From Escherichia phage vB_EcoS_ESCO30, in sequence record NC_106513.1: 64,000 bases of DNA, one strand, 5' to 3'. The notes beneath the pieces were generated by a model. The model had not been told where the DNA came from, did not search any database, and saw nothing but the letters and a program-made list of their open reading frames with translations. Shown here piece by piece: positions 15,064-57,325 of the stretch. A program made the position numbers and the translations under genes. The stretch's first letter is position 1. Each line of letters begins with the position of its first letter.

Positions 15064-15234
15064 ATAAGTATAGGATGGGATACTACTCAGTTGGTATCCC
15101 ATTCCTGCATTTTAAAATCCCCTTTACAAATTCGATACGATTATGTATACTATATTCATTGATCGGGAGAACTTCTCCCATAATAGAACGTAAACAAGAA
15201 AAATTAATGCTCTACATGAGGTGTAGGAGATTCT

Positions 15235-15915
15235 ATGGGTCGACAAAAGCTAACAATAAAAGATATAAATATTAGATTAGCTGATCGTGGAATCCAAATT
15301 GTCGGTGAATATGTAAACCAACGTACAAAAACAGTATTTAAATGCCAGAGAGCACACGTTTGGGAAGCAACACCACATTCTATACTCCATATGAGGAGAG
15401 GTTGTCCACACTGCTCCAATAATACAATATCGTTAGATGAAGTTAGTAACAGAATATCTAGTATAGGATATACTCTGTTAAGCAGCTATACTAATGCTAA
15501 AACAAAATTACATCTACGCTGCAATAACGGGCATGACTGTTTCATTACCTTAGATGGATTGACTCAAGGTAAAAGATGTCCTTATTGCTCTCTTAAGTGG
15601 GAGAATGGCGGATTCCTCTATATCATGTCCTCCTCTAGCGGTACTAAAGTAGGCATAAGCTTATACCCTGAGAAACGGTTGAATGAAGTTAAAAGAGAAT
15701 CTGGATTTTCTGACCTGTACTTGTTCACCATGTATCATCTACCTGATAGAGAGACTGCTTTAGATTTAGAAAAGGAAGTTCACAGAGAATATTATAATAA
15801 AAACTGTGGGTTTTCTAATTTTACAGGAAGCACGGAATTTTTTAATGTTGCTCCTGAGGATATAGTAATCTTTCTAAGTAGCTTTGGATTGGAGGATTAT
15901 GGCCACCAATACTAA
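15235..15915 (+). CDS. T5orf172-domain protein with two N-terminal zinc-ribbon repeats (226 aa)
   Basis: Repeats KCQRAHVWE...GCPHCS and RCNNGH...KRCPYCS; C-terminal GFLYIMSS...KVGIS resembles T5orf172/GIY-YIG-like fold. Confidence 0.55.
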   Translation: MGRQKLTIKDINIRLADRGIQIVGEYVNQRTKTVFKCQRAHVWEATPHSILHMRRGCPHCSNNTISLDEVSNRISSIGYTLLSSYTNAKTKLHLRCNNGHDCFITLDGLTQGKRCPYCSLKWENGGFLYIMSSSSGTKVGISLYPEKRLNEVKRESGFSDLYLFTMYHLPDRETALDLEKEVHREYYNKNCGFSNFTGSTEFFNVAPEDIVIFLSSFGLEDYGHQY

Positions 15916-16336
15916 ATATAAACGTGATGCTATTTCCATAATGAGAGATGGTATAAAATCTAGGTATAGTAAGGATGGTTGCTGTGCTATATGTGGTAGT
16001 AGTGAAGACCTAGAACTTCATCACTATCATACTATATCTCAGCTAATAAAAAAATTTGCTAAAGAACTCCAGCTGGATTTCACTGATGAGAATATCGTCC
16101 TTTCAAATAGGGAAGCATTCTACAAGAAATATGAGCATGAGTTAGTTAGGGACGTGGTAACATTGTGCCAGCACCATCACCAATTATTACATAAGGTTTA
16201 CACAAAAGAACCTCCTTTATTTTCTGCTAATAAGCAAAAAGTGTGGGTTCAAAAGCAGAAAGACAAATTACAGAATCCTCAAGAAAAGACACAAGTCAAG
16301 ACTGAAACAAAATCAGGATTCGCAAGGTTCTTATAA
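15899..16336 (+). CDS. HNH endonuclease (about 145 aa)
   Basis: CCAICG...LELHHYH...CQHHHQLLH; start re-picked at ATG 15899 after GGAGG. Confidence 0.6.
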   Translation: MATNTKYKRDAISIMRDGIKSRYSKDGCCAICGSSEDLELHHYHTISQLIKKFAKELQLDFTDENIVLSNREAFYKKYEHELVRDVVTLCQHHHQLLHKVYTKEPPLFSANKQKVWVQKQKDKLQNPQEKTQVKTETKSGFARFL

Positions 16337-52459: not shown

Positions 52460-53227
52460 TTATTCAGCAGCCGCAGCTTTTGCATCCAGTTTAGCACGCT
52501 TAGCGGCACCATCATAGTCCTTAGCAACCAGACCACGACGAGACAGCATAGATTTAACACCGCGCTCAGATTTACCAGTTTTCTCAGCGATCTCAGCAAC
52601 AGTCATGTTAACCAGATCCAGGCCTTCTAACAGATCTTCACGAGTTTTAGCACTTGAGGTTTCCTGTACCGGCATAGCAGCGATACGACCTTCACGAAGC
52701 AGACTCAGAGCTTTACCGCGGATCTGCTTGATATTACGACCGAAGTGAGCAGCGATAGCTTCAATAGTAGCACCAGCAACAACCTGATTAACAAAATCAG
52801 TTTCTTCATCCGGAGTGAAGGAACGAACAGCAGCAGCTTTTTCGGTTGGCTTAACAGAAGCGGTCATTTCCAGACTCAGGATCTTACCCTGTACCTGTTT
52901 AGCACCGAACTGACCACCAGCTACAGCAGCAGCGATTTCAGCATAGGTATACTGACCAGCATGAGCATTCAGGAAATCAACCAGTTCAGCTTCCTGCTCA
53001 GGAGTCCACGGGGATTTCTGTACTTCGTTAGCTTTTTGTACTTCGAAACCTTCTTTACGCAGCTTAGAGCCAACAGAGCGAGCGGTAACGTCTTTGCCAG
53101 TTTCAGCAGCCAGTTCAGCGGCGATAGCAGCTACTTGTTCTTGAGAGATTACATCAACACCCAGAGCAGTGGCTTTTGCTTTCAGAGACTCGGTTACACC
53201 TTCTACGTTCCAGTTCAGTTTAGACAT
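52460..53227 (-). CDS. DNA-binding protein with four tandem HTH (sigma region-4-like) repeats (255 aa)
   Basis: Four repeats of about 45 aa matching T-P-E/D-x-E...AEIAA...G...K.LSL...G read from the translation. Confidence 0.55.
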   Translation of the reverse strand: MSKLNWNVEGVTESLKAKATALGVDVISQEQVAAIAAELAAETGKDVTARSVGSKLRKEGFEVQKANEVQKSPWTPEQEAELVDFLNAHAGQYTYAEIAAAVAGGQFGAKQVQGKILSLEMTASVKPTEKAAAVRSFTPDEETDFVNQVVAGATIEAIAAHFGRNIKQIRGKALSLLREGRIAAMPVQETSSAKTREDLLEGLDLVNMTVAEIAEKTGKSERGVKSMLSRRGLVAKDYDGAAKRAKLDAKAAAAE

Positions 53228-53999
53228 TATTATTTTTCTCCAATAGTTCTTTAATCGACAGGATTTCTATCCCATTCGTTTCGGCTTTCTTATAAGATGA
53301 GGAAGAACGCTTCGATTCATCCTCACAGATTAGGTATTTGACGTCTTTGGTAACGGATTTCTTAACCGTATATCCTAGACCTTCTAAATAGTTTGTTGCA
53401 TCCGTTCTATTTGCAAAATCTTGCAAAGATCCGGTAATACACACCGTGATTCCATTTGGCTGGGCAACTAATTCATCTGTAATGATGTCAGCTTTAGCAC
53501 CCTTAATACCATTTGAGAATTTCCACGGTAGTTCGATAACATCCTTGCCTTGTGGGGAACTTAGCCAGGCTTTATAATTTTCTCCAGCCTTGCCGTCAGC
53601 CTTCACATCGTGGAAGCTAGTGCAATTTTGGGATAATTTCTTTGCTGCAACCTCTCCAATTAGAGGGATTCCTAAAGAACCGAGAACTGAACCAAAGTCA
53701 ATGTCTCCGCGAACTTTAGTATTTAATTCGCTAATTAACTTAGCGGCAACCTTGCTACCCACGGCTCTAACCAAATCTTCTTCGGTTAGGTAAAACAGTT
53801 CTGAAATCTTCGTCAGCTCCAGCTTCTCAATAGTTTTTGGGCCAAAGCCCTTTAACTTCATTTTTGAACAGAAGTTCTCAATTAACTTACTTGATTGCGC
53901 TGGACAGTTGGACTTATTCCGACAGAATAATTGTCCGTTGACAAGATCTAGCTTAGAACCACAAGAGGGACATTGTGTTGGAATTTCGATTTTCATCAA
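53220..53999 (-). CDS. NAD-dependent DNA ligase, C-terminal subunit (Zn finger, HhH, BRCT; 259 aa)
   Basis: CPSCGSKLD...CRNKSNCPAQ zinc finger, GFGPKTIEKL HhH; adjacent to adenylation subunit. Confidence 0.7.
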   Translation of the reverse strand: MMKIEIPTQCPSCGSKLDLVNGQLFCRNKSNCPAQSSKLIENFCSKMKLKGFGPKTIEKLELTKISELFYLTEEDLVRAVGSKVAAKLISELNTKVRGDIDFGSVLGSLGIPLIGEVAAKKLSQNCTSFHDVKADGKAGENYKAWLSSPQGKDVIELPWKFSNGIKGAKADIITDELVAQPNGITVCITGSLQDFANRTDATNYLEGLGYTVKKSVTKDVKYLICEDESKRSSSSYKKAETNGIEILSIKELLEKNNNV

Positions 54000-54026
54000 A
54001 TTTCTTCCTTATCAATTTATATAAAT

Positions 54027-54055
54027 ATTATAGCAAGTATTTAAGCATTTAGCAA
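54027..54055 (-). promoter_or_regulatory. Sigma70 promoter TTGCTA-17-TATAAT upstream of ligase C-terminal subunit
   Basis: Minus-strand reading. Confidence 0.6.
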
Positions 54056-54119
54056 CTACAATTTTAACTAACTTTGCTTACCCTCGCCATAACTTTCTAT
54101 CCCTCAACTGAATGATAAT

Positions 54120-54148
54120 AGTATATACCTAAGCGGCGAAAATGTCAA
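54120..54148 (-). promoter_or_regulatory. Sigma70 promoter TTGACA-17-TATACT
   Basis: Minus-strand reading; consensus -35. Confidence 0.55.
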
Positions 54149-54198
54149 TAACCACTTTATAATTCCGATATGGTAGATGGGTAGCAAAGGGTTATGTA

Positions 54199-55170
54199 TT
54201 AATCGTATACTCTCTCTACTATGCACGGGATTACACCACCAGCACGAATCACTCGAATCTGGCAACCGATCTCTAGATCAAGAGAGTTAATATAATCAAC
54301 GTTATTAAGAGTCGCTTTAACAATTGTAGCATCATCAATAATTACCGGTTCGAAATAACCAACTGGAGTTACTTTACCAGAAGCCCCTACCTGCCATTCA
54401 ACTTTAGTAAGAGTTGTAATCTCGCCTTCTTCATCCTCTTTAATAGCGAATGCCCCGCGAGGGAATTTATTAGTCCAGCCTTCTCGGAAGAATTTGTTGT
54501 TGTCATTAATACGAACAACTTTACCATCCGTCGGAATCCATTTAAAGAAGGAACGCACATTAACAACTGTTAAGAAGTTCTCATTCTCTAGCCAGAGCAT
54601 ATCTTTTAAATACGATTCTGTAATACCTACAGATTCAGCAGAACATTGGATACCGTATGCAACGAAGATTAAACCACCTTCCCCGATACGTTGTGCGAAA
54701 TCATCGCTATCTTTGAGGTTAATAGCACCAGAGGCAAAGTTACGTTTATTTTCTACTTCTTTTGTAATTAGAACTTCACCAGTGATTTGAGTAGGTACTT
54801 TTTGGGAAATCTTTTTAGGGATGTTCAGCAATCTTACGTTGCTTGTGACATCATTCCCTAGAATACCATTACCACGAGTTAGCGCTTGAACAAATTCGCC
54901 ATTAATATATAACAGAGAAATCGCACAACCATCTAACTTATCAGTTTCTACCTGACCTAATGGGTTAAACGGAGGTTTATCTCCACGATTATAATAAACT
55001 TTCTGTAAAGAATACATACGATACAGATGTGGAATATCACCCTTAGGCCCGATCTCTTCCTCTAATGGGAAGCGTTTTACCAGGCGATCATATTCTTCAT
55101 CAGAGATTAAAGACATGCCTTGATAATATGCTTCTTGACAGCGTTTAATAAATTCTTTTACATTGGTCAT
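54199..55170 (-). CDS. NAD-dependent DNA ligase, N-terminal adenylation/OB subunit (323 aa)
   Basis: Adenylation motif KLDG (TDKLDGCAI); LigA-like N-terminal region. Confidence 0.75.
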   Translation of the reverse strand: MTNVKEFIKRCQEAYYQGMSLISDEEYDRLVKRFPLEEEIGPKGDIPHLYRMYSLQKVYYNRGDKPPFNPLGQVETDKLDGCAISLLYINGEFVQALTRGNGILGNDVTSNVRLLNIPKKISQKVPTQITGEVLITKEVENKRNFASGAINLKDSDDFAQRIGEGGLIFVAYGIQCSAESVGITESYLKDMLWLENENFLTVVNVRSFFKWIPTDGKVVRINDNNKFFREGWTNKFPRGAFAIKEDEEGEITTLTKVEWQVGASGKVTPVGYFEPVIIDDATIVKATLNNVDYINSLDLEIGCQIRVIRAGGVIPCIVERVYD

Positions 55171-55236: not shown

Positions 55237-55548
55237 TTATTCTTTTTCCGCCAGGCGTCTAGCTTCTTTTTCTACTTCTAATAAAACCTCACTATTAGAC
55301 AATATTTTAGTAAATGCCTTAAATAAATGAGATGTTGTTTCTAGAGTGTATGGCATACTGAATCCACTTTTTGTTGGAAACCATTCGCCTTCTATATCTT
55401 GGAGCCAGTACCTAATTCCTAAGTATAGATTCCCCCTAAACTCAGATACAGTTAGCCTAACCTGTTGGCCATCTTCTCTTTCCCAGATAACTATGGACTG
55501 ATCATCTACATGCCCAACATAATCCTGATTTACATTATCTCCCGACAT
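55237..55548 (-). CDS. PC4-like ssDNA-binding protein (103 aa)
   Basis: Segment RLTVSEFRGNLYLGIRYW...PTKSGFS resembles the PC4/p15 fold signature. Confidence 0.45.
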   Translation of the reverse strand: MSGDNVNQDYVGHVDDQSIVIWEREDGQQVRLTVSEFRGNLYLGIRYWLQDIEGEWFPTKSGFSMPYTLETTSHLFKAFTKILSNSEVLLEVEKEARRLAEKE

Positions 55549-56195
55549 TTTATTGCTCCCTGACTTAGGAGATATTCCTCTGCCTCCTCTGGTTGAATAT
55601 TAAAAAACTCAGTAGAACCATCAAATATTGATTCTGTAAATATCTGTGTAGTACTAAAAAATCTATGAGCTTTATTTTCTAGATTATACGCTGACTCATC
55701 ATAAGAGTATACTCCATGTATACTCAAGTCCTCCAGATTAGAGTCTTTTTTGATCTCTAAAAGTCTTCTATCTGGACTTTTAGATGTTCCTATTTTTGTT
55801 CCTAACCGTGGACTATAGAATATATACAAATAGCTTGTAGTTACACAAATAGGACAAGACCTTCCTGCATTTTTAACTTTATCCACGCTACTAGTCCACC
55901 TATGCCCCTCTGCACACTCGAATACTGCTTGACTATGTGCATTGATATAGGGAGGTATAAGTTTTATGCCTCTATTGGCTAATTGTTGATTTATTTGCTC
56001 TATAGTAAGTTTAGCTTTACCGCTACAATGTGGGCAACCACTGCCTTTTCTTATATTATTTAGGTATGCCTTCCACTGGTGGCCTTTTGAGCATCTAAAT
56101 ATGGCGGGTGTTCTTATGTTAATCCACTCACTTACTATACTAAAACCTCGCGGCTCTAATTCTTTATTTATTTGCTTTACTGTTAACTTTTTCAC
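55530..56195 (-). CDS. T5orf172-domain protein with two N-terminal zinc-ribbon repeats (221 aa)
   Basis: RCSKGHQWK...GCPHCS and ECAEGHRW...SCPICV repeats; C-terminal YLYIFYSPRLGTKIGTS; paralog of 15235-15915. Confidence 0.55.
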   Translation of the reverse strand: MKKLTVKQINKELEPRGFSIVSEWINIRTPAIFRCSKGHQWKAYLNNIRKGSGCPHCSGKAKLTIEQINQQLANRGIKLIPPYINAHSQAVFECAEGHRWTSSVDKVKNAGRSCPICVTTSYLYIFYSPRLGTKIGTSKSPDRRLLEIKKDSNLEDLSIHGVYSYDESAYNLENKAHRFFSTTQIFTESIFDGSTEFFNIQPEEAEEYLLSQGAIKCREIM

Positions 56196-56214
56196 TATAA
56201 CCCATATACAGCAA

Positions 56215-56232
56215 AGGAGAGCCGAAGCTCTC
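56215..56232. repeat. Hairpin GGAGAGCCGAAGCTCTCC; its reverse complement is identical to the capsid terminator stem at 20092-20109
   Basis: Read directly; T-run on plus strand only. Confidence 0.6.
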
Positions 56233-56242
56233 CTTTTCTTTA

Positions 56243-56533
56243 TTATTTTTTGCCTACTGGCGTAGCTCTATCAAGTTCACTAGACAATGAAGTGATACGT
56301 TTCACCTTATTTACAGGAATAAATCGGAAGCTGTCATTAGTGCGACTAAACACTAGAATTTCGTCATCTTTTGGTTGACGGATACGCTCCTGAGCAAAAC
56401 GTTTACTTAGGTACTTATCAGAAAAATCCATAGTACCCTGAAGGTACGTAGTACCTTTTTGGCGTAGTTTCTCATAATGAAGGTAGAACTCATTATGGGC
56501 TTCACATGCGGAGATAATTTCTTGTTTGTTCAT
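56243..56533 (-). CDS. Hypothetical protein (96 aa)
   Basis: ORF in early operon; no motif recognised. Confidence 0.4.
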   Translation of the reverse strand: MNKQEIISACEAHNEFYLHYEKLRQKGTTYLQGTMDFSDKYLSKRFAQERIRQPKDDEILVFSRTNDSFRFIPVNKVKRITSLSSELDRATPVGKK

Positions 56534-57064: not shown

Positions 57065-57325
57065 CTACACGTCTAGCTCAACAATCTCCCAATCATCCGC
57101 TAGAGCTTCATCTAGAGTTAATTCAACCTCTTCATCACTGGGCAGCAGCGTAGTATCTGAAGGCATCCACACGTACTGGCGTACAGTATTGCTGTCTACG
57201 TCAAATTTCAATAGTACAGTATACTCTCTATTATTTTCCCAGCTATCCCGCTGGAGATATTTTACTTCCCCATCTTTAAGTAAATCAGTTAGTCTACTCA
57301 CGGCGTTTTCCTTTTTCTTTATCAA
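57065..57325 (-). CDS. Hypothetical acidic protein (86 aa)
   Basis: ORF only. Confidence 0.4.
   Translation of the reverse strand: MIKKKENAVSRLTDLLKDGEVKYLQRDSWENNREYTVLLKFDVDSNTVRQYVWMPSDTTLLPSDEEVELTLDEALADDWEIVELDV

Follow-up and report, generated by a model that had tools for sequence, protein, structure and literature searches.

Zinc-finger T5orf172 endonuclease genes at two loci of a T5-like phage: probable homing endonuclease genes linked to diverged downstream alleles

Results

Two genes of one family at separate loci

Here, we analyzed a 64,000-nt stretch of the genome of Escherichia phage vB_EcoS_ESCO30 (NC_106513.1; hereafter, the window), a T5-like phage whose terminase-portal and ligase-D3 regions are 95–98% identical to those of Tequintavirus genomes, including T5. 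Both T5orf172-family endonuclease genes reported in the initial annotation were recovered as open reading frames (ORFs): copy 1 on the plus strand at 15235–15915 (226 aa) and copy 2 on the minus strand at 55530–56195 (221 aa, GTG start). Their placement is also as described there, with copy 1 located between the genes for the terminase large subunit (terL) and the portal protein, and copy 2 within the early replication block, between D3 and ligA. The family assignment comes from Pfam and from matches to phrog_681, ‘endonuclease’ (E = 4e-59 for copy 1 and 1.5e-51 for copy 2), and public records label the corresponding genes ‘endonuclease’ or ‘putative homing endonuclease’. The two proteins are full-length paralogs with 35% identity (BLASTP E = 2e-43), and a six-frame profile search of all 64,000 nt detected copies 1 and 2 only, with no third copy. 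Across 450 phage records, the zinc-finger T5orf172 family is represented by 641 matching places, up to 5 per genome and at different positions. The term ‘paired’, previously applied to the two genes, is misleading: T5 carries copy 1 only, whereas phages fp01 and smaug carry copy 2 only. Thus, because the two copies assort independently among genomes, they are independent genes rather than a functional pair.

A shorter relative is found in Klebsiella phage vB_Kpn_K7_rec5 (compared segment L013, 1495–1884), namely, a 129-aa stand-alone T5orf172 gene, numbered 151 and annotated as ‘homing endonuclease’. In experimentally evolved Klebsiella T5-like recombinants, the one gene from the minor parent that every recombinant retained was a GIY-YIG gene denoted ‘CDS 98’ (PMC12654880); in the recombinant genomes, the match to the T5orf172 family is gene 151, which may or may not correspond to CDS 98.

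Tandem zinc fingers and a GIY-YIG-type domain

Each protein starts with two Cys/His repeats. The duplication posited in the initial annotation stands, but neither the proposed C-x-x-H spacing nor the assignment to zinc ribbons does: the ligands are spaced C-x3-H-x14/15-C-P-x-C in all four fingers of both copies, and Pfam classifies the finger fold as a treble-clef. A zinc-ribbon match from NCBIfam (RNA polymerase subunit P) was rejected, its score of 25 bits lying far below the cut-off of 84. Two stretches of each protein match CapR (PF21817; 35.0 bits for copy 1 and 33.3 for copy 2, gathering threshold 24.2) and DUF4379 (PF14311; 31.3 and 43.9 bits, respectively, gathering threshold 24.5). 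The internal duplication is also apparent across the two copies, the first finger of copy 1 aligning with the second of copy 2 (39% identity, E = 3e-15). In copy 1, the tandem CapR/DUF4379 repeats span 15244–15597 on the plus strand (aa 4–62 and 63–121 by Pfam), with predicted zinc ligands C37, H41, C57 and C60 in finger 1 and C96, H100, C115 and C118 in finger 2, and jointly constitute a presumed sequence-specific DNA-binding module. The fingers of copy 2, predicted from Pfam, lie at 56019–56192 and 55842–56018 on the minus strand.

The repeats are followed, as stated in the initial annotation, by a T5orf172/GIY-YIG-like core, with Pfam matches above the gathering thresholds in both proteins: T5orf172 (PF10544; 35.4 bits for copy 1 and 25.3 for copy 2, threshold 20) and MUG113 (PF13455; 36.2 and 40.2 bits, respectively, threshold 22.3), both of the GIY-YIG clan. 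In copy 1, this domain occupies 15604–15879 on the plus strand (aa 124–215) and includes Y129, K138, G140, R148, E179 and E201; the nuclease domain of copy 2 is predicted at 55572–55835 on the minus strand. Structure prediction, one of the checks proposed originally, yielded for copy 1 an AlphaFold2 model with a mean pLDDT of 89, in which two similar small domains, each consisting of a helix, three strands and a short helix, precede a C-terminal beta-beta-alpha-beta-alpha domain, that is, the alpha/beta fold of GIY-YIG nucleases in a predicted model. Structural comparison matched SLX1/HIGLE (8.1, 7.5 and 6.9 for the individual matches), the N-domain of AtGRXS16 (4.8), the I-TevI catalytic domain (4.7), PD-T4-3 (4.5), UvrC (3.9) and Eco29kI (3.9). 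A Foldseek search with the whole copy 1 model returned nothing useful, and a sequence search against the PDB gave ankyrin-type matches only, which we judged spurious.

To count conserved residues, we used the same alignment that underlies the structural model, which comprises 40 full-length homologs collected by profile search; a word-indexed search had given 7 proteins. Y129, G140, R148, E179 and E201 are invariant (40 of 40), K138 is present in 39 of the 40 homologs, and the finger cysteines are conserved in 37–40 of them. The fourth ligand, the finger histidine, is retained in 30–32 of the 40 (75–80%), which counts against the homing interpretation given below. All these residues, ligands and catalytic-type positions alike, are present in both window proteins. 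Either of the two glutamates, E179 or E201, may correspond to E75 of I-TevI or to E180 of the phage ICP1 nuclease Odn.

Among the metagenomic homologs, arrays of more than two fingers are common, and in six proteins (P0067, P0072, P0076, P0085, P0090 and P0115) the CapR/DUF4379 array is fused to PF18741 or PF04480 instead of T5orf172. Judging by such domain combinations, the fingers look like a targeting module that can be moved between proteins.

The terL–sciA–portal locus

The T5 ortholog of copy 1 is T5.154 (98% amino acid identity). Copy 1 starts at the ATG at 15235, with an AGGAG ribosome-binding site just upstream, and the same start is annotated in phages PNJ1902 and 2-3. The RefSeq version of T5.154 (NC_005859) is 277 aa long, 51 codons longer than the 226-aa frame, and is credited with a ‘single transmembrane domain’ at the N-terminus. 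Comparison of the region of this extension (window 15075–15275) with the T5 segment (L001, 2829–3662) shows that a 1-nt difference at about 15219 breaks the extension in the window and leaves the 226-aa frame intact. Two plus-strand elements identified by scanning fall in this region: a terminator-like hairpin downstream of terL (15073–15104), which is kept in all 4 aligned sequences, with or without copy 1, and a sigma-70-like promoter, TTTACA-17-TATACT (15123–15151; 10 of 12 matches), which aligns with its counterpart at the empty site of phage DaisyDussoix. Because the ‘extension’ corresponds to the terL hairpin and promoter, which genomes without the gene also have, the start given for T5.154 in RefSeq appears to be wrong, and the likely start is the equivalent of the ATG at 15235.

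Downstream of copy 1 lies sciA (15899–16336, plus strand), the homolog of T5.153 and the gene for an HNH-type nicking endonuclease, so named in the annotations of DT57C and the BASEL phages. The last 17 nt of copy 1 are shared with the beginning of sciA. Pfam gave for the HNH motif of SciA a best match to HNH_2 at E = 0.58 on a longer ORF and no match on the protein beginning at the ATG. In empty-site genomes, the promoter runs straight into sciA, as in DaisyDussoix, where the ribosome-binding site and ATG of sciA come immediately after the common promoter, whereas in the window copy 1 intervenes. Alignment with the empty-site genomes places the insertion at approximately 15160–15885 on the plus strand (about 0.72 kb), with the left junction after 15159.

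In phages DT57C and SA001, only remnants of copy 1 are found, which retain about 48 near-identical initial codons and a diverged second finger but have lost the entire nuclease domain. DT57C additionally has ACG in place of the ATG start codon. The remnants lie at about 1197–1540 of the compared DT57C segment (L005) and at 837–1004 of that of SA001 (L006), where the SA001 annotation has a 55-aa ‘hypothetical protein’.

Copy 1 is sporadically distributed. Orthologs with at least 80% amino acid identity were detected by tblastn in about 80 of roughly 450 records, a tight terL–portal query was covered to at least 80% in only 72 of 543 records, and terL–sciA–portal takes up about 1,280 bp in most T5-like phages but 2,001 bp in the window. 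A megablast search with a 3.8-kb query had made copy 1 seem near-universal (361 of 449 records with at least 80% coverage); the tighter query ruled this out as an artefact, since the gene accounts for only 18% of the longer query. Occupied and empty states both occur in Tequintavirus, in Epseptimavirus and in one Klebsiella T5-like clade, in which a 52%-identical ortholog is likewise present or absent.

The position of copy 1 between terL and sciA/portal, together with its co-inheritance with sciA, could be taken to mean that it is a non-mobile part of T5 DNA packaging or nicking, acting with terminase and the SciA nickase. This appears extremely improbable, given that copy 1 is absent from most T5-like phages, which keep terL, sciA and portal, and that the remnants in DT57C and SA001 show that it can be lost. 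The ‘Not Fit’ score of T5.154 in CRISPRi-ART points in the same direction but carries little weight because the guide was aimed at the mis-annotated start and portal likewise scored ‘Not Fit’.

The T5.114–T5.115 locus

T5 has no counterpart of copy 2, only a terminator between T5.114 and T5.115. Relative to T5, copy 2 is a clean insertion, in both the window and phage NR01, downstream of a hairpin. This hairpin, GGAGAGC-TTCG-GCTCTCC (56213–56236, minus strand), was found by scanning between copy 2 and the upstream T5.114 homolog (56243–56533, minus strand), at the position equivalent to that of the T5 terminator. Downstream, the final 19 nt of copy 2 coincide with the start of the gene for a PC4-like ssDNA-binding regulator, the T5.115 homolog (55237–55548, minus strand; Pfam PC4). 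In phage Gostya9, the allele type of the T5.114 homolog changes near its 3′ end; therefore, a recombination breakpoint adjoins the copy 2 insertion. The complete copy 2 locus is present in 10 of 442 records, including NR01, fp01, smaug, SelmaRatti, SP01 and HZ_ZJUN2, and tblastn similarly detected orthologs with at least 80% identity in about 10 records. T5 and Gostya9 have intact empty sites, and no decayed version of copy 2 was seen, unlike copy 1. Thus, when the proposed check for mobility among T5-like genomes is made, both genes prove to be sporadic, clean intergenic insertions, and the strict vertical conservation that would speak against mobility was not found.

Several features of the surroundings of copy 2 can be recorded here. 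An 86-aa minus-strand ORF at the T5.112 position (57065–57325) is a local hot spot of divergence, with identities to T5, Gostya9 and NR01 of about 46–52% at 57101–57200 and 68–77% at 57201–57300, against more than 90% in the flanks. NR01 has an extra 189-nt ORF (L003, 3465–3653) between ligA and the PC4-like gene, which is absent from the window and T5 and is visible in the identity profile as a gap of 179 nt. Two separate genes, ligB and ligA, about 200 bp apart (window about 53200–55170; compared segment L002, 1519–3472), code for the NAD-dependent DNA ligase; in T5, promoters are annotated between them, and the window is about 93–100% identical to T5 there.

Each gene runs into the start of its downstream neighbour, and copy 1 is situated between a promoter and sciA, an arrangement that would also suit domesticated DNA-binding regulators devoid of nuclease activity, with copy 1 controlling sciA and copy 2 the PC4-like gene. 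A precedent exists in CapR of the satellite PLE, a repressor from the same family (PMC8096241). However, Tyr, Arg and Glu of the catalytic type do not vary among the homologs, the nuclease domain is complete, omega is about 0.1, and in most T5-like phages sciA and the PC4-like gene are expressed with no regulator of this kind, so that we find this possibility hard to credit.

Linked flanking alleles and selection

Against empty-site genomes, a drop in nucleotide identity, to about 70–80%, is confined to the gene directly downstream of each copy, and values of 97–100% resume just beyond it. At the first locus, sciA is 68–85% identical to the empty-site allele at the nucleotide level, against 100% for the portal gene, and falls into two allele classes, about 85% identical in amino acid sequence, according to whether copy 1 is present. 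Between the window and Epseptimavirus phage 2-3, dS is 1.12 for terL, 0.48 for copy 1, 0.46 for sciA and 0.24 for portal; the respective values against PNJ1902 are 0.41, 0.58, 0.64 and 0.16. Given that copy 1 and sciA share their dS whereas terL and portal differ, the two genes are exchanged together, as a unit flanked on either side by a breakpoint. At the second locus, the PC4-like allele of the window shows dS of 1.9–2.9 against the empty-site phages T5 and Gostya9 but only 0.07–0.08 against the occupied NR01 and SP01, with ligA and D3 remaining at 0.07–0.19 throughout these comparisons. Among the 442 records, sorted into coverage classes, none has the window-type PC4-like allele without copy 2. 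Such diverged flanking alleles could also result from ordinary mosaic recombination of variable modules rather than from endonuclease-driven co-conversion.

Both genes evolve under purifying selection (omega 0.085–0.10 for copy 1 and 0.14–0.17 for copy 2). For a selfish gene, such selection is expected only while chances for homing persist; therefore, this observation fits a function useful to the phage equally well. Accordingly, the two proteins might be weapons beneficial to the phage, that is, sequence-directed nucleases deployed against competing phages, satellites or host DNA. ICP1 provides the example of Odn, a T5orf172 nuclease used against PLE satellites (PMC8263062), and domains of homing endonucleases have been repeatedly co-opted in phage-satellite conflicts, according to a broader survey (PMC10448857). 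Nevertheless, we consider this explanation unlikely. Both genes sit beside diverged alleles of conserved genes, with empty sites and remnants in sister phages, as homing predicts; their fingers are of the generic CapR type, without a borrowed specificity domain such as the RepA_N domain of Odn; and neither protein matched any defence-system model in PADLOC-DB at E values up to 0.01. This reading overlaps with homing, of which marker exclusion is a by-product.

Discussion

Taken together, these observations indicate that copies 1 and 2 are probably homing endonuclease genes (HEGs) of the free-standing kind, within the T5orf172 branch of the GIY-YIG superfamily, that would spread by the homing mechanism outlined below. 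The initial annotation allowed for selfish elements, an interpretation that is now supported by the insertions, the empty sites, the decayed copies, the many paralogs and the linked diverged alleles. As befits HEGs, each gene is either present or absent at a fixed site in otherwise collinear genomes, with intact empty sites in DaisyDussoix for copy 1 and in T5 and Gostya9 for copy 2; degenerate copies exist in the case of copy 1 (DT57C and SA001); and identity profiles along with gene-by-gene dS reveal diverged linked alleles and recombination breakpoints beside the gene. The direct support thus consists of the domain architecture, the fold, the catalytic-type residues, the intergenic insertion, the sporadic spread, the decayed copies, purifying selection, and the linked alleles with their breakpoints. 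Zinc binding, the existence of target sites, DNA cleavage and biased inheritance are what we infer from these features for both copies.

Under the proposed mechanism, the two N-terminal zinc fingers would read a specific DNA site at or near the empty junction in the genome of a co-infecting relative, and the C-terminal GIY-YIG-type domain would cut nearby DNA of this T5-like phage that lacks the gene. Recombinational repair would then copy into the cut genome the endonuclease gene along with the adjacent resistant downstream allele, that of sciA or the PC4-like regulator. Judging from where the diverged alleles lie, the target sites probably either span the empty-site junction or lie where the downstream gene begins, at its 5′ end, the linked downstream alleles being presumably resistant to cleavage; computational analysis identified no target site for either copy.

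A more elaborate version of homing could be envisaged for copy 1, in which the gene would travel with its linked sciA allele as a minimal ‘HEG island’, a mobile module of two nucleases. In one variant, the endonuclease may spread a particular version of the nickase that makes the single-strand interruptions of T5, in which case gain of the endonuclease gene would also alter the nick pattern of the phage; in the other, the endonuclease and SciA may act jointly, with one strand cut by each. That copy 1 and sciA have equal dS, that the breakpoints on both sides are sharp and that the reading frames overlap is compatible with this scheme, but simple linkage explains these features equally well, and we regard the scheme as quite unlikely.

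The homing interpretation that we favor places both genes within a family already known, as instances of a published group of selfish phage nucleases, copy 1 being a gene of T5 itself. The original verdict of unknown function is accordingly outdated at the family level: finger-bearing T5orf172 HEGs have been described (PMC10448857), and Odn cuts DNA (PMC8263062). The present analysis adds local detail, namely, where the two copies are inserted, which sciA and PC4-like alleles go with them, what is left of copy 1 in DT57C and SA001, and a corrected start of T5.154, which affects how CRISPRi knockdown of this gene is to be read. The linked alleles mark the probable areas of the target sites. Furthermore, given that T5 (occupied) and BASEL phages such as DaisyDussoix (empty) can be cultivated on E. 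coli K-12, these phages offer a convenient test bed for homing by T5orf172 nucleases.

Comparison with known systems

The closest relatives in design are the HEGs of phage ICP1. Barth, Dunham and Seed (2023; PMC10448857) describe T5orf172 HEGs with repeated fingers of the CapR/DUF723/DUF4379 type, likened to ‘beads on a string’; list T5-like phages among the lineages enriched in these genes; report a terminase gene in 35% of their neighbourhoods; and locate them at boundaries of genetic exchange, with the caveat that homing by T5orf172 HEGs was not verified experimentally. In an earlier study, Netter et al. (2021; PMC8096241) characterized PLE CapR as a zinc-finger DNA-binding protein akin to the N-terminal domains of the ICP1 T5orf172 proteins, showed that its finger cysteines are required for DNA binding, and interpreted the ICP1 proteins as homing endonucleases. 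ICP1 gp174, gp165 and others have the same domain order as the window proteins, with tandem N-terminal CapR/DUF4379-type fingers and a C-terminal T5orf172 domain (PMC10448857, PMC8096241). The HEGs of the ICP1 type and the window genes are alike in being free-standing, in lying near terminase or replication genes and at exchange boundaries, and in having decayed alleles. The passages of both papers compared here make no mention of the terL/sciA and T5.114/T5.115 loci or of the linked sciA and PC4-like alleles (PMC10448857, PMC8096241).

With Odn (Gp88) of ICP1, the window proteins share a T5orf172 catalytic domain with conserved Arg and Glu (PMC8263062). Odn cuts DNA in vitro, and the E180A substitution abolishes cutting (Barth et al. 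2021, PMC8263062), which makes it the only T5orf172 member with demonstrated DNA cleavage in the literature compared here. However, Odn employs a DNA-binding RepA_N domain captured from the satellite and serves as an anti-satellite weapon, whereas the window proteins have zinc-finger repeats and a homing-like genomic setting.

The I-TevI and Seg endonucleases of phage T4 (SegB and others) are more distant. In I-TevI, the catalytic domain is N-terminal, whereas in the window proteins it is C-terminal; the second motif is Y-[IV]-G in the I-TevI/Seg family and K-[IV]-G here; and the DNA-binding module also differs. Thus, given the K-[IV]-G motif and the C-terminal catalytic domain, the window proteins share the I-TevI fold and would act in a similar way but fall outside the I-TevI/Seg family.

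Finally, PLE CapR contains a homologous zinc-finger domain, and PF21817 is apparently named for it. The first ligand pair is C-x3-H in the window proteins, as opposed to the CxxC...CxC reported for CapR (PMC8096241). CapR is described as a transcriptional repressor that resembles the N-terminal domains of HEGs (PMC8096241), whereas the proteins encoded in the window retain the full nuclease domain, its catalytic-type residues being invariant.
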